Both the position numbers and the translations under genes were made by a program. 64,000 nucleotides of DNA from an uncultured Gemmatimonadales bacterium (lineage in GTDB: Bacteria; Gemmatimonadota; Gemmatimonadetes; Gemmatimonadales; GWC2-71-9), in the NCBI GenBank assembly GCA_963828735.1, contig CAWHFW010000005.1, forward strand, positions 1,056,001 to 1,120,000, read 5' to 3'. The first letter of the stretch is position 1. Each line of letters begins with the position of its first letter. The notes under the pieces were generated by a model, which saw only the letters and a list, made by a program, of their open reading frames with translations, searched no databases and was not told where the DNA came from. This document shows, piece after piece, positions 18,699 to 31,072 of the stretch.

Positions 18699-19535
18699 TT
18701 AGCTGCCTTCGAGGGCACCGATCCGCTCCGCAATGGCCTGGTTCCACTCCTTCCCATCAGCGCCATGATGGACCCGCCGATGGCAGGTGGGACAGAGCGC
18801 AGCCACCCATCGTGGATGGTCCGGTCCTCCGTCCGCGAGGCGGCGGATATGGTGTGGCTCCAGGTAGGGTTGCTTGGCGGGGTCAAGAAAGGAGCTGCTT
18901 CACCGCAGCCCTCGCACATGCCGCTGGCGCGCTTCCGAACATAGATCCGCACGGCCTCACTGCGCCGTCGCACAATGGTCCGTCGTTCTTTCGCTGTGGC
19001 ACTTCCTGAGGCTCCAGCGAGGGCGGCCACCCGGAGCTCGGCTAAGATCGCGGCCGCGGAGGTCCGGGCTTGGCCGCTCCGCATCCACTCGAAGATCGGG
19101 AACGACCGCTTCCGGCTCGCGATCGTTTAGCGCCAGCTCAAAGACTAGGGCACGACGAAGCGTTCCATTGCGATCCGGCGCCGTGGCGTCGTGAACGCCC
19201 AGGTAGGCCGCCTCACCGAGGTAGCGGACCCAGCCAGTGCGTATGGACTCAAAGAGATGAAGTGTTTTGCCCTCGGCTTCGTGGTCCCGAATCGCCCGGT
19301 TGCCTCGGACCATCTCCATATCGCCGACCTGACCCTCACCCGTATACCAGAACGTCCCGTCCTCCTGGAATCCATCGCTGTACCCGTACTGTTCGCCGGA
19401 TTCACCGGTGAAGAGCAGGAGGATCGGAAAGCGTTGGGGCGTGCTGATACCGCCCTGGCGCTGGCCCCCGTACTTGGCGTGGAGGTCGCGCCGACGATAC
19501 TCCGCCCCGATCGTGAACTGACGCGCGTCAGGCAT
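18699..19535 (-). CDS. SRA-like/HNH endonuclease, McrA-type (two frameshifts, near 19060 and 18880)
   Basis: GGQRQGGIS...YGYSDG...YTGEGQVGDM N-domain; CEGC...PYLEPHHIRRLADGGPDHP...ALCPTCHRRVH across frames. Confidence 0.75.
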
Positions 19536-19926
19536 GCCGATTCAGCAGGTGCATGGCGAAGGCTCGATCAGTTGGGGCCAGTTCGTACTCTAGCAATTCG
19601 GAGCGCGGAACCCAGGCTACCGCGTCGTGCTCGAGCGCCTGCGGCTCGCCCACGGCGGCTACCTCCGCGAACTGGATCAGGAACTCGGATCCGGGGTCCT
19701 GCCGCTCGAAGAGGATCGCTCCTATGCTCTCCACTTGAAGCCCGAGCTCCTCTGCAAGTTCACGCTTGGCGGCTGCTAAATGATCCTCGTCATAGGCTAA
19801 CTTACCGCCTGGAAATTCCCAGAGTCCACCGTGGCGTTTACTTCTGGGCCGTTTCGCGAGCAGCACACAACTGTCTCGCGCGACGACGGCAGCAAGAACT
19901 CGGACAACAGGCGATTGCTGTCTCAC
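19528..19926 (-). CDS. NUDIX hydrolase (MutT/NudG-like)
   Basis: WEFPGGK...AAAKRELAEELG Nudix box; overlaps the HNH start. Confidence 0.85.
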   Translation of the reverse strand: MRQQSPVVRVLAAVVARDSCVLLAKRPRSKRHGGLWEFPGGKLAYDEDHLAAAKRELAEELGLQVESIGAILFERQDPGSEFLIQFAEVAAVGEPQALEHDAVAWVPRSELLEYELAPTDRAFAMHLLNRHA

Positions 19927-20165
19927 GGAGCGTGCTTCCTTCAATATGGAATGCCAACTCGTGGCTACGACTGGGGGCATGAACTTGGCGCAGGTCAACG
20001 TCGGGGAAGCCCCCCAGAATCTATCCGATCCCAAGCCAGATGAGCTCAGGTTGGCTCTGTGGACAGGGAAGTGGGCAGCGGCCGAAATCACGAGCTTGGC
20101 GTTCGAGCCATCCTACCCTCCCGCTTCTACCGCTCGAATGTTTCGGCCAAGATTGGCTACGCCAC

Positions 20166-23133: not shown

Positions 23134-24858
23134 GTGCTCCCGAGGCAGACCTTGAAGCTCGTCTCCTTCGCGATCCGCAACTTCCGCAGCATCAGCAATA
23201 CTTCCAAGCTCCCCATTCGTGATTCAGTCACTGCTCTCATTGGACCAAACAATGAGGGCAAATCGAACCTGCTACGAGCCCTGGTGACTGCGATGGAAGT
23301 AGTAAGCAAGCTCGAGGCCTACACCCTTACTCGGCACGGCCGGATCAGGGGCTACTTAATGATGGACAGGGCCTACAATTGGCCGCAGGATTACCCGATT
23401 CATCTGCAGGACAAGAACCCAGAAGGGGAGTCGCAGTTTGACCTGGAGTTCGAGCTAACTGATGCGGAAGTGTTGGCCTTCAAGCAAGAGGTGGGCAGCT
23501 CACTCAATGGGACGCTTCCCATTCGCATAACGATCGGCAAGAATGAGCCGAAGTTCAGCGTACGCAAACAAGGCCCTGGTGCGAAGACGCTTTCTGCGAA
23601 GGCAGACAAGATCGCAGCCTTCATCGGGAAACGGCTCGACTTTCAGTACGTACCGGCTGTCCGGCCCGCGAGTGCCGCGACCAACGTAGTAGAAGAGATT
23701 GTCGCTCGCGAGTTGCAGACGTTGGCGCAAGACGAAGAGTATCGTGCGGCGGTCCAGAGAATTGAGGAACTCCAGGAGCCCATCCTGCACACTATCTCAG
23801 AGAATATTCGAGACACCTTGCAGGCATTTCTCCCAAACGTTAAGGGTGTCAGAGTTGCGGTGCCCCAGGATGCCCGCTATCGAGCTCTCTCACGTTCCTG
23901 CGAAGTGATAGTAGATGATGGCACGCCCACAAACTTGTCGCGCAAAGGCGATGGAGTGCAAAGCCTTGCCGCACTAAGTCTGATGAGGCACGCCTCTCAA
24001 AGAACTGCGAAAGGTCGCCAGTTGATTTTGGCAATTGAGGAACCAGAGTCGCACTTGCACCCGAAGGCGATTCACCAACTTCGCACGGTCTTGACTGAGA
24101 TCGCGGGTCAACATCAAGTCATTATCACTACTCATTGTCCGGTGTTTGTCGACCGCGCCGATCCCAGTGCTCACATTCTTGTCACTGAGAGCGAAGCGGC
24201 GCCTGCAGAGTCTGTCCAGGAGATCCGTGACATCCTCGGAGTAAAGGTATCCGACAATCTGACCACTGCCGAGGTGGTTCTCCTTGTGGAGGGAGAACAC
24301 GACAGGACAGCTATTAGGGAGTTGCTAGTACACTCCTCGCCAGTTCTGGCTAAGGGGCTTTCGCAAGGTGCGCTTGCGATTGACAGCCTCTTGGGAGGAG
24401 GGAATCTGGCATACAAAGCCTCGCAGGTGCGTGATGCTATGTGTGTCGTTCACGCGTTAATTGACCACGATCAGAGCGGGAAAACCTCCGTTCAGCGGGC
24501 GGTAACGGAAGGCCTGTTGACGATAGCCGATGTGACTTATACCAGTTGTTTGGGAATGACAGAGTCCGAGATCGAGGATTGGTATAATCCGGCGCTCTAT
24601 GTACCCGTGTTAGCAGCGGACTATTCCCTGAACGCGACTAGTCCACACTTTACCTCAACAAAGAAGAAGTGGACCATACGCATGAAGGAGCTCTTCATGT
24701 CGAGCGGCAAGGGCTGGGATGAGAAGGTCGAGGGAACAATCAAGCGGCGGGTTGCCGATACTGTTGCTGCGAATGCAGCGGGAGCCATTCACCCTGCGCG
24801 TTCCGACGGCATGGCCTCGCTCGTTGGCGCCCTTGAAGCAAAACTTGGCAAAGTGTAA
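23134..24858 (+). CDS. OLD-family ATP-dependent nuclease (ABC ATPase plus TOPRIM)
   Basis: IRNFRSI, GPNNEGKS, IEEPESHLHP, TTH, VEGEHD, DHD. Confidence 0.85.
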   Translation: MLPRQTLKLVSFAIRNFRSISNTSKLPIRDSVTALIGPNNEGKSNLLRALVTAMEVVSKLEAYTLTRHGRIRGYLMMDRAYNWPQDYPIHLQDKNPEGESQFDLEFELTDAEVLAFKQEVGSSLNGTLPIRITIGKNEPKFSVRKQGPGAKTLSAKADKIAAFIGKRLDFQYVPAVRPASAATNVVEEIVARELQTLAQDEEYRAAVQRIEELQEPILHTISENIRDTLQAFLPNVKGVRVAVPQDARYRALSRSCEVIVDDGTPTNLSRKGDGVQSLAALSLMRHASQRTAKGRQLILAIEEPESHLHPKAIHQLRTVLTEIAGQHQVIITTHCPVFVDRADPSAHILVTESEAAPAESVQEIRDILGVKVSDNLTTAEVVLLVEGEHDRTAIRELLVHSSPVLAKGLSQGALAIDSLLGGGNLAYKASQVRDAMCVVHALIDHDQSGKTSVQRAVTEGLLTIADVTYTSCLGMTESEIEDWYNPALYVPVLAADYSLNATSPHFTSTKKKWTIRMKELFMSSGKGWDEKVEGTIKRRVADTVAANAAGAIHPARSDGMASLVGALEAKLGKV

Positions 24859-24960: not shown

Positions 24961-26355
24961 CTAGGCACCTCGAATCTTCCACAGGCTTTGGCCTGGCCAG
25001 CTGACCCGCCGTGACCTTGAAACTCGATCCTGCTCAAACGCCTCGGGGTTTGCTCCTGCAATCAACCGCCGAACAGCGACAGAGCTTATCGTGACATCAA
25101 CCAATTCTGGATCAAATTGAGTTCCCTTGCACTTTTGAAGTTCAGCCACGACTATGTCCAAGCTGAGGCGCTTTCGGTAGGGCCTGTCGGTCGTCATCGC
25201 ATCGATGGTATCCGAGATCAGGATGATACGTGCTGCCAGGGGAATGCTCTTGCCCGACAAGCCCATGGGGTACCCTTGACCATCCCAACGCTCGTGGTGG
25301 TGCCGTACCGAATCCTGAATGAAGCCACGGAACGTGGAGATGATCCCGACGAGTTCTGCGCTCCTCATCGAGTGGGTCTGCATCAACGCGGTCTCTTCTT
25401 CCGTTAGCCGCCCTTCCTTCCGAAGAAGTGGGGCAAATTCCTCGTGAATCTTTCCAACATCGTGTAGCAGCGCCGCCGTTTCGACTTGTTCAATCTCCTT
25501 TGCAGGAAGCCCCATTTCGACTGCAATCGCCCGCGACAGTTGGCTCACCCGGACGGAGTGACCTGAGGTATAAGGATCTCGGGCTTCTATGGCTTTCACC
25601 ATCAACTGGAGCAACTCCTGTCCACTGTCCTGGAGTTGGTGGTACAAGCCGTACACATGCCGAACAGCCACGATCGGAAGTATTACGCCGACAAGTCCGA
25701 TGGGCCCGAAGCCGAGCCACCGCTGCACTGACGTGTAGAGCCACGCTACGAGCAGCGAGATCAAGCTTGCGCCAATGTCGTAGCCTAGCACGCCCCGTGT
25801 ATTGAGACTCCATACCTCACGGAATGAACGCTCAGAGCTTATGGCAACTACGAGGCTTACTAATACGGAGTTGACTAGAAAGTAGGTCGCGGCAAACAGG
25901 AAGAAGAGGCCGAGGTCTCTCTGGAACAAGTCCGAGGAAAGAGTAGCTCCAGGGTTGAGATAGGACGGTGGAAGCTGACCCCCAAGACTTGAATAGACGA
26001 GCGCTGCAGCTACAACGGATACGATTCGCTGAGAGACATTGAACACAATCTTGATCGGCTGGCTTCCTCGCGCGAGATCCCCGAAGCAGGTCGACACACC
26101 TGCGACGAGGCCACTCCAGAAGCCTCCAAAAAGCAGTCCAGCTGCGATATGCATGATGAAGGACGTAGAGCCCTTCGCTTGCACGCGCAGCTGAGTATTG
26201 AGGGTCTCAAGCACGAACGCGATAACAACGAAGCTTCCGAACGCCCACCAACCGGGGAATGGAAGAGCCGTGGCTTTCGCCAAGACTGCCAGCCCGAAGG
26301 CCGTAGCCGTGACTGTCGCGACTACGAGGTGTGTGCGCTGTTCGCGTGACATCAT
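24961..26355 (-). CDS. Membrane-sensor HD-GYP cyclic-dinucleotide phosphodiesterase
   Basis: Multi-TM N-terminus; EARDPYTSGHS, HDVGKI, HHHERWDGQGYP, DTIDAMTTDRPYR. Confidence 0.92.
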   Translation of the reverse strand: MMSREQRTHLVVATVTATAFGLAVLAKATALPFPGWWAFGSFVVIAFVLETLNTQLRVQAKGSTSFIMHIAAGLLFGGFWSGLVAGVSTCFGDLARGSQPIKIVFNVSQRIVSVVAAALVYSSLGGQLPPSYLNPGATLSSDLFQRDLGLFFLFAATYFLVNSVLVSLVVAISSERSFREVWSLNTRGVLGYDIGASLISLLVAWLYTSVQRWLGFGPIGLVGVILPIVAVRHVYGLYHQLQDSGQELLQLMVKAIEARDPYTSGHSVRVSQLSRAIAVEMGLPAKEIEQVETAALLHDVGKIHEEFAPLLRKEGRLTEEETALMQTHSMRSAELVGIISTFRGFIQDSVRHHHERWDGQGYPMGLSGKSIPLAARIILISDTIDAMTTDRPYRKRLSLDIVVAELQKCKGTQFDPELVDVTISSVAVRRLIAGANPEAFEQDRVSRSRRVSWPGQSLWKIRGA

Positions 26356-26395
26356 TAGGTAGACAAAGGACGGGGATCCAGGTCCTAACAAGTTC

Positions 26396-26479
26396 TTACG
26401 ACCAAACCTGGCCTTCACTCTTGCCGAACATACCAGCAAGGAAGTAGGCAACCGATGCGAGCAGGTTCACTTTCAACAT
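26396..26479 (-). CDS. 27-aa small peptide MLKVNLLASVAYFLAGMFGKSEGQVWS
   Basis: Strong SD GAAGGGGGTGA before ATG; basic/hydrophobic/polar-Trp layout; 40 bp upstream of the HD-GYP gene. Confidence 0.65.
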   Translation of the reverse strand: MLKVNLLASVAYFLAGMFGKSEGQVWS

Positions 26480-26700
26480 GAGCGTCACCCCCTTCGAGGG
26501 AAAAAACGTACTGCGTGAAGGAAGTGGTAAGCCTCGCTATGGCATACCAGACGCTCCGCTCCATCAATTGTCCGCTAGTCTCCGCTGCACTGCACTCACT
26601 AACGAAGACCGGGATCCCCTTTACCCCTGTGTTCCTTTCCCGAGTAGGGTTGGCCTGCACCGTCGTACAGCCCGTGCCCCTGCCCTGACATTCCTCCTGA

Positions 26701-26716
26701 TGCAACGGGCGCACCT
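26701..26716 (-). promoter_or_regulatory. Possible sigma54 -24/-12 promoter
   Basis: AGGTGCGCCCGTTGCA (GG-N10-GC with TTGCA) upstream of the peptide/HD-GYP unit. Confidence 0.35.
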
Positions 26717-26827
26717 CTGGGGTGCGCCCACCAGCATTCGCGTCTATTCCCGGCACACGGGGCAACGGCCACGAACCGGCCCCGTACGAACGATTCCCTG
26801 TGATGCCCTACCTTCCCTGCCCGACCC

Positions 26828-27574
26828 TCAGTTCGGCCGGCGCGCTTCCGTCCAGCGGTTCGTCGCATCCAGCACGGCGAACACCGCCGCCCGCTCCGCG
26901 CTCTCCTTGATCTCGCTGGTGCCGGTCATCAGAGTCGTCTCCCGGCCCCCCAGTCCCTGCACCGCCACGAACGCGAACTCGCGATCGAAGCCCTCCACGA
27001 TCTTGGCGCCCTCGAGCGCGATGCTGCTGTCCGTGAGCAGCCGGTCCAGCACCGACACCGCCGCCTTGGCGGCCCCCTCCACCCGGCTCCGCGGCGTGTC
27101 GCTCGCCTCCTCCTCCGCCGTCTCGGTCTGCGACCGGTAGGAGAGCGTCACCGTGATGGCGATGCGGTGCGGCCGCTTGCCCGGCGCGACGGTCATGTTC
27201 TCGAACAGGACCGTCCGCTGCAGGACCCGCTCGCGCACCGAGTCGCGCTCGAGCGCCTCGATCGGCTTCACGTCCGCCGTCTGCGCGATGCTGATCTTGC
27301 GGTGGTCCACCTTGAGGCCGAGCTGCGCCAGGAGCGCGCTCTCGATGTTCCGCACCAGCTGCTTCGCCTGCAAACCCGACTGCGCGAGGATGTGGATCTC
27401 GCTCACTTCCCCCAGGGGCGTCGTCACCACCCGCGCGCTCAAGATGCCTTCGAGGCTCGTCAATAAGTTCTCCGCCCGGCGCACGCCCCACGGATCCGGC
27501 GCGGCGTCGGTCGCAGTAGCGCGGCCCGGCGTCGCCGTAGACGGCGGCTGCTGGCGGGGACTGAATCCGGTCAC
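26828..27574 (-). CDS. Conserved hypothetical protein
   Basis: KQLVRNIESAL...VDHRKISIAQ...AVLDATNR; host-like codon usage; AAGGA RBS. Confidence 0.8.
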   Translation of the reverse strand: MTGFSPRQQPPSTATPGRATATDAAPDPWGVRRAENLLTSLEGILSARVVTTPLGEVSEIHILAQSGLQAKQLVRNIESALLAQLGLKVDHRKISIAQTADVKPIEALERDSVRERVLQRTVLFENMTVAPGKRPHRIAITVTLSYRSQTETAEEEASDTPRSRVEGAAKAAVSVLDRLLTDSSIALEGAKIVEGFDREFAFVAVQGLGGRETTLMTGTSEIKESAERAAVFAVLDATNRWTEARRPN

Positions 27575-27616
27575 GTTCGTATTTCCTTGTTGTCCTGCGA
27601 TGTGTGGCTTCACGCG

Positions 27617-29338
27617 CTACGCAACGGCGTTTCTGCCCGCGGCCTTGGCCCGGTAGAGCGCGCGGTCCGCGCTCACCAGCAGGTCGCCCTCCGACGGCAC
27701 CCGCGGATCGAACTCGGCGAGGCCGACGCTCACGGTGATGAGCCCCGGCGGATAGCCCAGCCGACGCCCGATCCCCTCGATACCCGCCCGGAGCGCTTCC
27801 GCCACCCGGGCCCCGCCCTGAAGATCGGTGCGGGTCAAGATCACCACGAATTCGTCACCGCCGTAGCGCGCGGCCACGTCCGACGCGCGTACCGCGTTCC
27901 GGATCTCACCCGCCACGGCGCGGAGGACCTCGTTCCCCGCCTCGTGGCCGTACTGGTCGTTCACGTCCTTGAACTTGTCGAGGTCGAGAAACAGGACCGC
28001 GAACCCTTCGTTGCTGCGCTTGCTGCGCTCCACCTCGAACGCCAGCCGGTCGCGCAGCAGCCGGTAGGTCGTGAGCCCCGTCAGCGTGTCCACCGCCGCG
28101 GCCCGCTGCGCCTCCGCCACCCGGCGCTCCTGGTACGGCGTGCACTGCCGCATGCTGGCCCGGCCGAGCACCGCCGCCTCGGCGAACCGCCGGCAGGTGT
28201 CGAACCCGCAGGCCCGGCAGTCCCATGCCTTCCCGTTGGGACCCAGCCCGATCTGCTCCAGCACGCCGCGCACCGCCACGGGGTCCGGCGGGATCCGGCG
28301 CGGCTTGAACGCGAAGGTCGCGCCCACGCTGGCGACCACCCCCGCGTCCACCACCGGCTGCCGGCTCCGCGGAGCCTCCACGCTCGCCAGCAGCTCGCGG
28401 CGCCAGAACAGCCGCTCCTGCGGGCCGGACAGCGGGTGGTCCAGGATCCCCTCGGACGAGAGGATGTCCACGAAGCCCAGGTCCAGCCGGTCCACCGCCA
28501 CCGCCCGCGCCACCGCCGGGAGGGCGTCGAGCCCGCGGATCTTCCGGAACCGCCGGCTCGACTGCCGCGCCTCCTCGAGCAGCGCCAGGGGAAGTCCCCC
28601 GGCCGCGCTCAGGTGCCGTCGGCGCTCCTCCGGCACCCGGTGGAACCAGGTCGGCTGCGACAGCACGTCCACCCCGCGAATGCGGAAGAGCTGGTCGAGA
28701 TCGCCGAACGTGATGGCCGCATCGAGATCAGGGCTGCTGACCGGCGGGCACACCCCCGCGTACGCGATCCTGAGCCCATCCCCGTGCTGAGCCCGCAGAT
28801 ATCGGGCCTCGGCGACCGCCGGGACCGTCACCGGCGCCAGGTAGGGCAGAAGCTCCGGGTACTGCGCCCGCACCGTCTCGACCACGACCGGGTCGGTGGA
28901 CCGGATGAGGGTGCCCCAGGGCTCCTCTTCCCACAGCTTAAGGTATTCAGCCGCAACGAGTTCGTCGCCGATCACCCCTCGGGTGACCGTACGGAACCCC
29001 GCTTCATAGCAGGCGTTGATCAGCTGTTCTGGACTGGCTGGGTAGAAATACGCCACCGATTCGGGGCTCAGGATGAGCACCCCGTCGCCCTGCGAGGCGA
29101 TGGCAAGAGCCCGCCCGATCTCGCCGTTTACCTTGACCGCCCCGTGGGGGCAGGCCGGAAGGCAACGGCCACACCGGATACAGGCCTCGTCCACCACCTG
29201 CAACAGCAACGGATCGTCGCCCGCCACCGCGACCGCATCGGTGGGGCACACTCGCACACACGCGAGGCACGCGACACATAACTCGGCGTCGATGACGAAA
29301 TTCAAGAGACCCGACCGGTCGGGGGCAGGGGGAGCCAT
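27617..29338 (-). CDS. GGDEF protein with 2x[4Fe-4S], [FeFe]-hydrogenase-like and FeS sensor domains
   Basis: CVACLACVRVCP, CIRCGRCLPACP, DCRACGFDTC...C, DLDKFKDVND, RYGGDEF. Confidence 0.9.
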   Translation of the reverse strand: MAPPAPDRSGLLNFVIDAELCVACLACVRVCPTDAVAVAGDDPLLLQVVDEACIRCGRCLPACPHGAVKVNGEIGRALAIASQGDGVLILSPESVAYFYPASPEQLINACYEAGFRTVTRGVIGDELVAAEYLKLWEEEPWGTLIRSTDPVVVETVRAQYPELLPYLAPVTVPAVAEARYLRAQHGDGLRIAYAGVCPPVSSPDLDAAITFGDLDQLFRIRGVDVLSQPTWFHRVPEERRRHLSAAGGLPLALLEEARQSSRRFRKIRGLDALPAVARAVAVDRLDLGFVDILSSEGILDHPLSGPQERLFWRRELLASVEAPRSRQPVVDAGVVASVGATFAFKPRRIPPDPVAVRGVLEQIGLGPNGKAWDCRACGFDTCRRFAEAAVLGRASMRQCTPYQERRVAEAQRAAAVDTLTGLTTYRLLRDRLAFEVERSKRSNEGFAVLFLDLDKFKDVNDQYGHEAGNEVLRAVAGEIRNAVRASDVAARYGGDEFVVILTRTDLQGGARVAEALRAGIEGIGRRLGYPPGLITVSVGLAEFDPRVPSEGDLLVSADRALYRAKAAGRNAVA

Positions 29339-29444: not shown

Positions 29445-30960
<1,516 letters not shown>

Positions 30961-31072
30961 GGGCAGCAAATTAATGCCGTCGCGGGGCCACCGGCTTGAA
31001 ATCGCCTTGACGCCGGGGCGCTAGACATGGGCGCACGTCCCCGACGTCTCCCCCAGCGCGAGGCAGGCTCCC

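Follow-up and report, generated by a model that had tools for sequence, protein, structure and literature searches.

A candidate peptide-controlled cyclic di-GMP switch: a conserved tryptophan-tailed peptide gene and a probable RNA gate ahead of MASE9-HD-GYP genes

Introduction

MASE9 is a membrane sensor domain whose ligand is left undefined, and is considered probably to be bound within the membrane, in the main text of its defining paper, in which the word 'peptide' does not occur (bioRxiv 10.1101/2021.11.05.467447). MASE9-HD-GYP proteins (PF20972) such as T. maritima TM1467 and S. venezuelae HdgA have the same domain architecture as the protein considered here; HdgA is described as membrane-bound and as having no developmental phenotype (PMC6205966). 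Unlike the locus in the window, as the whole analysed stretch of 64,000 nucleotides is called throughout, the three Streptomyces-type HdgA loci read here possess no adjacent peptide.

In the staphylococcal agr system (AgrBDCA) a small peptide gene adjoins the gene of a membrane receptor, and a hypervariable region defines allele groups (PMC6834553). The present locus resembles agr in that it also appears to have a variable block, which here extends from the peptide tail through MASE9; it differs by the absence of AgrB (PF04647 was not found in the 97.5% complete genome that contains the window) and of a conserved tail cysteine, by its HD-GYP output and by a receptor of S-component fold. RRNPPA/Phr systems employ short C-terminal peptides from secreted propeptides, sometimes in tandem (PMC11343458), which are perceived by cytoplasmic sensors (PMC4147580). 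Peptides of Bacillota described below, which resemble a bare signal peptide plus 4-7 residues, are reminiscent of this organization, as is the triple tail of one precursor (L331), which recalls tandem-pheromone propeptides. RRNPPA receptors adopt a TPR fold. Here, the flanking genes code for the MASE9-HD-GYP protein and for a protein without Pfam or NCBIfam match, with no TPR receptor adjoining, and the proposed partner, a membrane domain of S-component fold, forms one protein with a phosphodiesterase. The module belongs to neither agr nor RRNPPA; its mode of action may be analogous to agr, to Phr signalling or to that of small-protein regulators.

The 5TMR-LYT receptors BtsS and YpdA display the S-component fold and bind small-molecule ligands near the outer face in an outward pocket (PMC11109136, the main text of which contains neither 'MASE' nor 'HD-GYP'). 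The six-helix ligand-binding fold is common to these receptors, the ECF S-components and MASE9, which has an added seventh helix and, as the charge bias suggests, the opposite orientation. MgrB, a small hydrophobic peptide, controls the sensor PhoQ, and in SecM, MifM and TnaC a short ORF gates the next gene; in contrast, the present module would bring together an RNA gate and an allele-matched tail. In C. difficile, small membrane proteins are encoded behind c-di-GMP riboswitches (PMC13724677), as is a small membrane peptide in the Chloroflexota version of the module. The C. difficile proteins consist of 58 aa and four helices, including a hydrophobic one at the C-terminus, and a linkage to HD-GYP is not described in the available text of that paper. 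The openly accessible literature, with the MASE9 preprint covered by its main text, yielded no description of a peptide or an RNA upstream of MASE9 genes. The module reported here is probably an undescribed cyclic di-GMP switch, controlled by a peptide and provided with an RNA gate; new are its range over five phyla, the evidence for a trans-acting product, the allele cassette and the fold.

The locus

The peptide ORF is located on the minus strand at window:26396-26479:- and translates to 27 aa, MLKVNLLASVAYFLAGMFGKSEGQVWS, followed by a stop, with a hydrophobic to amphipathic N-terminal part and the tail EGQVWS. A strong ribosome-binding site, AAGGGGGTGA, occupies positions 26494-26485 (-), and the distance from the peptide stop to the ATG of the HD-GYP gene at 26355 is exactly 40 nt. 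Translation and coordinates confirm the Trp-tailed ORF with its strong Shine-Dalgarno (SD) sequence to which the preliminary description, made from the sequence alone, had drawn attention. By crude calls, an SD-led hydrophobic Trp-tailed short ORF occurs near 2/3704 gene starts of the genome, one of which is the ORF in the window; the genome possesses a single MASE9 gene and no further copy of the peptide gene.

The 464-aa product of the downstream gene matches MASE9 (PF20972, E 2.7e-10, 41 bits versus a curated cut-off of 24.3) and HD_5 (E 1.7e-33). The MASE9 domain comprises residues 1 to ~232 (25660..26355, -), followed by a linker helix and the HD-GYP domain (24961..25659, -), the motifs of which (EARDPYTSGH, LLHDVGK, HHERWDGQGYP, DTIDAMTTDRPYR) are intact; the earlier recognition of a multi-TM HD-GYP protein with intact metal-binding motifs thereby holds. 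The HD and HHExxDGxGYP motifs with their metal ligands, together with the modelled fold (Z 26.1 to 4mcw), identify an HD-GYP domain, which on these grounds is a predicted cyclic di-GMP phosphodiesterase. In the ESM Atlas the sensor was assigned only to MASE9 clusters, its homologues are labelled Gemmatimonadales, and a search of plasmids for the sensor found none at E 0.01.

Peptide and HD-GYP gene had also been noticed to be more AT-rich than the genes upstream, which GC/GC3 values of 0.50/0.64 and 0.56/0.63, respectively, versus 0.69-0.71/0.89-0.96 for the upstream same-strand genes bear out. The low GC3 recurs in 46/46 Gemmatimonadota loci, with a median of 0.63 as opposed to 0.93 in the upstream gene, and so characterizes the family rather than indicating recent transfer; recent horizontal transfer as the cause of the low GC was rejected in view of the family-wide bias and the conserved synteny.

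Conservation and range of the peptide gene

Searches with the sensor in Gemmatimonadota retrieved matches in 32/61 relatives and 135/301 phylum genomes, the latter tally taking in one genome flagged as unpublished (G196) that enters no other count. We read 120 loci, 60 from the searches and 60 hand-picked for spread, of which 115 were analysed after removal of 3 without upstream DNA and 2 duplicates. A homologous ORF of 14-35 aa, chosen by SD score in 112 cases and by hand in 3, precedes the sensor gene in 115/115 loci, with a gap of 20-59 nt in 109. Trp is the last or next-to-last residue in 106/115 and the third-last in 3, so that a small ORF comparable to that of the window is indeed present upstream of homologues, Trp-tailed in most. 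Over 32 disjoint pairs of peptide genes of equal length, drawn from three phyla, dN/dS is 0.20 and the three codon positions differ 93/67/211 times; these sequence comparisons support a real conserved gene under purifying selection. No peptide matched Pfam or NCBIfam.

Other phyla, named by record titles, were searched with an alignment of diverse MASE9 domains over genome samples, with matches in 128/301 genomes of Bacillota, 50/201 of Actinomycetota, 22/121 of Chloroflexia, 5/81 of Acidobacteria, 32/41 of Chitinivibrionia and 30/31 of Eisenbacteria. Among the loci read, which are the top scorers of each search and not a random draw, a peptide ORF precedes the sensor gene in 30/30 Bacillota, 28/30 Actinomycetota, 15/15 Eisenbacteria and 14/24 Chloroflexota loci (in the last, one pick is doubtful and one was missed by the script and seen by eye), and in 0/13 Acidobacteriota and 0/15 Chitinivibrionia loci. 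Neither peptide nor RNA was found upstream of the sensor in these 15/15 loci of the last-named phylum, that of genome G346, in 3 Streptomyces/Kitasatospora loci of the HdgA type and in L250, L252 and L206. MASE9 is therefore not always accompanied by an adjacent peptide. In L284 and L291 the peptide precedes MASE9 histidine kinases.

The peptides differ in character between phyla. Those of Bacillota resemble a bare signal peptide ending in AGGA plus 4-7 residues with Trp, and combine a basic N-end with a hydrophobic core in 30/30; by the same simple rules a basic N-end is present in 33/115 Gemmatimonadota and 3/15 Eisenbacteria peptides. The Eisenbacteria peptides are acidic amphipathic helices with the ends (K/R)AGW or SGWM, and many of these as well as of the Gemmatimonadota peptides are unlike Sec signal peptides. 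Trp within the last three residues is found in only 16/28 Actinomycetota and 8/14 Chloroflexota peptides.

Several variations of the surroundings may be mentioned. In L146 an SD-led ORF of nine codons, MRTSGVSWG, which is located between an anti-sigma gene and the sensor gene and ~80 nt ahead of the start of the latter, presents a tail without the hydrophobic part. A second MASE9-like gene follows the first in L220, L222, L239, L240, L244-L258 and others, like the HdgA/HdgB pair, and one genus genome, G032, has two near-full-length sensor genes (C131 and C106). The gene upstream of the module in Bacillota/Actinomycetota loci (L122, 206-6979; L123; L250; L252) we take, from how it reads, to be like a ribosome hibernation factor, and a secA-like gene follows the module in L122.

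A structured RNA around the peptide gene

A long-range helix, P1, pairs a segment located 100-150 nt 5' of the peptide start codon (in the window 26607..26619, -) with the spacer after the stop (26372..26384, -), where its 3' arm lies ahead of the HD-GYP start. The structured leader in between (26480..26606, -) carries AGCG(G/A)(A/G) repeats near 26586, 26576 and 26560 and belongs to no Rfam family. Within it, a hairpin at 26548-26526 (-) exposes an AUAGCGA loop, and a helix of 26556-26550 with 26486-26480 (-) closes immediately 5' of the ATG. In the predicted fold the inner helices bury the peptide SD (26485..26494, -), which is paired in helices 2 and 4.

The ungapped helix score of P1 exceeds all 20 shuffles in 78/111 Gemmatimonadota loci; this score replaced a duplex-energy test, which discriminated poorly (41/111 beat all 30 shuffles). 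RNAalifold recovers P1 from a 49-sequence alignment. In a 32-pair structure, drawn from the same 49-sequence alignment on which it was scored, 94% of cells pair, slid controls pair at 44-52%, 0/500 shuffles equal the structure, and both-side changes occur in 16 pairs, including 9 of 12 in P1. AGCG(G/A)(A/G) is present in 2-6 copies within 170 nt before the ATG in 111/111 loci, versus 3% of genome windows with at least 2 copies. Outside Gemmatimonadota, the helix exceeds all shuffles in 36/53 loci with repeats and in 4/30 without. The 3' arm begins at most 15 nt after the peptide stop in 106/111 Gemmatimonadota loci, and the SD of the HD-GYP start is weak (score 3 or less) in 86/115 loci versus 1102/1855 starts in a crude genome control. 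The structured RNA that encloses the ORF, which the preliminary description had overlooked, probably gates translation.

Rfam covariance models gave no match in the stretch of the window at E up to 5, and AGCG-type leaders of 32 loci were unmatched at the gathering score. The leader was also considered as a degenerate c-di-GMP-I riboswitch, for which the Rfam search gave no support. A c-di-GMP-II riboswitch replaces the leader in 7 Chloroflexota loci and, among the examined loci, in that phylum only; it is followed by an ORF of 9-10 aa ending in KG(W/F) and then by the hydrophobic peptide. A search for an AGCG regulon in the genome of the window yielded 45 loose non-coding clusters, none of which resembled the leader by eye, and in 5 genomes of the phylum without the peptide the leader RNA gave 6 matches, fewer than a reversed control and none with a Trp-tailed ORF. 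One contig in one run of a soil metatranscriptome, 193 nt long, is identical to 26373-26565 and ends at the P1 base, with the flanking genes uncovered, and gives no more than a hint; as the runs held 6-11% of words, gaps in cover are uninformative.

Further elements were noted in these intergenic regions. Many genus loci share a conserved GC hairpin (26704-26732 in the window), located after the hypothetical gene and ahead of the leader. In L257, L258, L263, L267, L271, L283 and L295, AGCG(G/A)A motifs overlap the ribosome-binding region of the sensor gene itself, as expected of a site for a translational regulator. Bacillota/Actinomycetota spacers (for example L220, L245 and L249) show a T-rich run after the P1 3' arm, as might be left by termination or processing signals at the helix base.

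Fold and orientation of MASE9

In the protein model (pLDDT 90.4), MASE9 residues 32-213 contain the six-helix core and match many ECF S-components at Z 11-14, with extra first and last helices; the model aligns with 4m5b at Z 14.4 (rmsd 3.5, 190 aligned) and with the folate S-component 5d0y at Z 14.1 (rmsd 2.6, 152 aligned), values to be read against the Z of ~13 that helical bundles can reach by chance and against the fact that the S-component matches are all of one family. The K+R bias is 1.5, 2.8 and 2.7 for loops 1, 3 and 5 versus 0.0, 0.8 and 0.8 for loops 2, 4 and 6. Basic residues thus cluster at the N-end, in loops 1, 3 and 5 and at the C-end, and as the conserved residues S63, F66, F105, N106, Q109, N162 and W182 are found on the same side, the pocket, according to the positive-inside rule, probably faces the cytoplasm. 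This orientation makes a simple model in which an exported peptide binds outside doubtful. In view of it, and of the many Gemmatimonadota and Eisenbacteria peptides unlike Sec signal peptides, the exported, quorum-like action suggested in the preliminary description is one possibility.

Tail and sensor as an exchangeable cassette

Among ten genus loci, identity is 47-84% for the sensor domain, 81-96% for the HD domain and 79-96% for the upstream protein. The tree of the upstream gene unites L001, L002, L007 and L014 (97/97). The sensor data are incompatible with this clade (AU p 2e-43), and an 8-row sensor clade is in turn rejected by the data of the upstream gene (AU p 2e-5; 22 rows, the groups having been named after the trees were seen). 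In partial Mantel tests, which overstate among kin, the tail follows the sensor (16 loci, r 0.67; with the upstream gene 0.03), the N-terminal part of the peptide follows the upstream gene (16 loci, 0.54; with the sensor 0.01) and so does the HD domain (10 loci, 0.39; with the sensor 0.0). The variable block therefore extends from the tail to the end of MASE9, and these sequence relationships support tail plus MASE9 as an exchangeable specificity cassette. Of the peptide/receptor pair with exchangeable alleles that had been proposed, the conserved peptide, its pairing with the sensor and the exchangeability of sensor alleles are supported by the comparative data.

The covariation of tail and sensor that was expected from such a pair is supported in part. 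Of 240 columns, only 167, 170 and 171, which lie on the same face of helix 5, divide 18 genus rows without exception into those with and those without Gln at Trp-2. Among 73 held-out rows, Ser167 accompanies Gln in 18/21 versus 21/52, and the six best columns are 186, 185, 169, 62, 168 and 167. Phylogeny-aware pair tests of Gln/Ser167 were not significant (7 pairs, 4.1 the same way versus 0.3 opposite, median p 0.125; held-out rows, p 0.25), and mutual information, computed phylum-wide for tail versus sensor columns in 91 rows, gave no clear cluster and did not single out columns 167, 170 and 171. As tail and sensor are encoded ~60 nt apart, joint recombination alone could yield the covariation.

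Signs of a trans-acting product

The 69 peptide-bearing loci outside Gemmatimonadota comprise 38 with both AGCG repeats and hypothetical gene, 6 with the gene only, 2 with the repeats only and 23 with neither. Three Actinomycetota loci (L256, L261 and L268) contain two identical peptide genes in tandem, and in these as well as in L260, L262, L264, L269 and L270 a TATAAT-type box is seen by eye between peptide and sensor gene. In some loci the peptide gene is located up to ~250 nt from the sensor gene, and in L331 a single precursor bears the tail GGHAWW three times. Retention without the RNA, tandem gene copies, the triple-tail precursor and the match between tail and sensor allele suggest that the peptide probably acts in trans.

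A subtilase ending in tandem Trp repeats, with S8-type matches below family cut-offs, adjoins a MASE9-like gene in 5/13 Acidobacteriota loci and in L126, L134, L159 and L289; it was not found in the genome of the window.

The upstream hypothetical protein

The conserved hypothetical protein encoded at 26828..27613 (-), the gene of which travels with the sensor gene, is without Pfam or NCBIfam match and falls into unnamed ESM Atlas clusters. In its model (pLDDT 85) the N-terminal alpha/beta domain matches CDF C-terminal, BolA and adenylation subdomains at Z 7-9, and the C-terminal domain resembles the regulatory domain of LeuA/CMS (Foldseek E 7e-6 to LeuA; Z 9.3 to 3f6g, rmsd 3.2, 110 aligned). 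Co-occurrence of the gene with AGCG repeats fits the idea of an RNA binder, and the protein was not found in 4/5 tested genomes with fewer than two repeats before the peptide ORF; the fifth possesses the protein and has its repeats after the peptide. The protein was not found in the repeat-bearing genome G833. Against a role as RNA binder, the N-terminal domain shows no clear RNA-binding family and the protein occurs without the RNA in 15/15 loci of one phylum. In these loci, of the phylum of G346, the gene stands directly before the sensor gene with neither RNA nor peptide, so that the target of the protein may be the enzyme instead of the RNA.

Proposed mechanism and alternatives

The recurrence of the pairing in five phyla and the variation of the tail with the sensor indicate that the peptide is probably the signal of MASE9. 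In the reading we favour, with a probability of roughly 0.6, MASE9 binds the Trp tail as its ligand, the supply of which is gated by the RNA, and the module is a two-layer switch on a cyclic di-GMP phosphodiesterase. The short ORF would give rise to a membrane-associated peptide, of which the C-terminal 5-7 residues around Trp are the candidate ligand of the neighbouring MASE9. With an S-component-type binding fold apparently inverted in the membrane, the tail would enter a pocket in the cytoplasmic membrane half, predicted to be lined by the end of helix 5 (residues ~162-171) and by residues 182-186, and binding would alter HD-GYP activity in one direction or the other. The tail may be tethered by the hydrophobic N-terminal part, or it may be released by cleavage and, in case of export, be taken up again; we give about even odds to a ligand that moves from cell to cell and to one that remains tethered in its producer. 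The RNA layer, consisting of the long-range helix, the buried SD and the AGCG repeats, would set translation of peptide and enzyme, perhaps via the upstream hypothetical protein.

An RNA gate could also act entirely in cis. A ribosome translating the ORF would open P1 and free the HD-GYP start, and the peptide would never meet MASE9; stalling during membrane insertion might have the same effect, for which SecM and MifM are precedents of nascent-chain stalling. The covarying P1, its 3' arm so close to the stop, the weak HD-GYP SD and the secA-like gene after the sensor gene in L122 speak for this unlikely alternative, and stalling geometry fits the Gemmatimonadota loci. It does not fit loci without the RNA or with a duplicated peptide gene, and a peptide retained at up to ~250 nt distance, a tail triplicated in L331 and matched to the sensor allele, and Trp-repeat subtilases that take the place of the peptide beside MASE9 in other loci all argue against an exclusively cis-acting ORF. 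Gate and ligand role are compatible and can coexist. If the ORF were instead a leader that monitors charged tRNA-Trp through its only Trp codon, a small metabolite would be the ligand of MASE9, as known receptors of S-component fold bind small ligands (PMC11109136). An amino acid would be sensed by the hypothetical protein, whose gene is linked to the sensor gene without the peptide in 15/15 loci, through its LeuA-like domain. We consider this improbable, given that there is usually one Trp codon, in place of which several lineages have Phe, Leu or others, that selection acts at the protein level across the whole peptide and that the neighbours of Trp covary with the sensor.

A hydrophobic peptide of 14-35 aa, a buried SD and a long-range helix form a combination that resembles type I toxin mRNAs, silenced by 5'-3' pairing. 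That a toxin-like membrane peptide merely resides beside the sensor gene is nevertheless highly improbable in view of its fixed position before MASE9 genes in five phyla, the lack of a second copy in the genome and the c-di-GMP-II riboswitches which replace the leader in Chloroflexota.

The favoured reading of the tail as ligand would provide MASE9, an orphan sensor without ligand in its defining paper, with a synthesisable candidate, the Trp tail of 5-7 residues, along with predicted pocket residues and natural allele pairs. If true, it would tie peptide signalling directly to cyclic di-GMP turnover in Gemmatimonadota, Bacillota, Actinomycetota, Chloroflexota and Eisenbacteria and extend the S-component fold to peptide ligands; the module in addition presents an RNA element without Rfam family and a conserved protein without assigned function. 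A broader generalization is tentative and we consider it doubtful as a whole: MASE9 might be a widespread inverted-S-component receptor of Trp-ended peptides from three precursor types (hydrophobic micropeptide, multi-tail micropeptide and Trp-repeat subtilase) with HD-GYP, GGDEF/EAL or kinase outputs. Its supply would be gated by AGCG-repeat RNA in at least four phyla, possibly with a binding protein of its own, and by the c-di-GMP-II riboswitch instead in Chloroflexota, and the whole would constitute cell-to-cell signalling with allele groups, wired into cyclic di-GMP.

Neighbouring genes

The gene order upstream on the same strand is as first described, with the hypothetical gene followed by the gene of an FeS/hydrogenase-C-terminal-like GGDEF protein (27617-29338, -) and a sigma-54 activator (29445-30969, -). 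The latter is present in two frames, split near 30390, which reflects a frameshift or an assembly error. Convergent with the HD-GYP gene, a low-GC gene (23134-24858, +) codes for an AAA_15/AAA_21 ATPase with weak matches to anti-phage ATPases; together with an SRA-like (18957-19535) and a NUDIX gene (19528-20091) it suggests a defence island.
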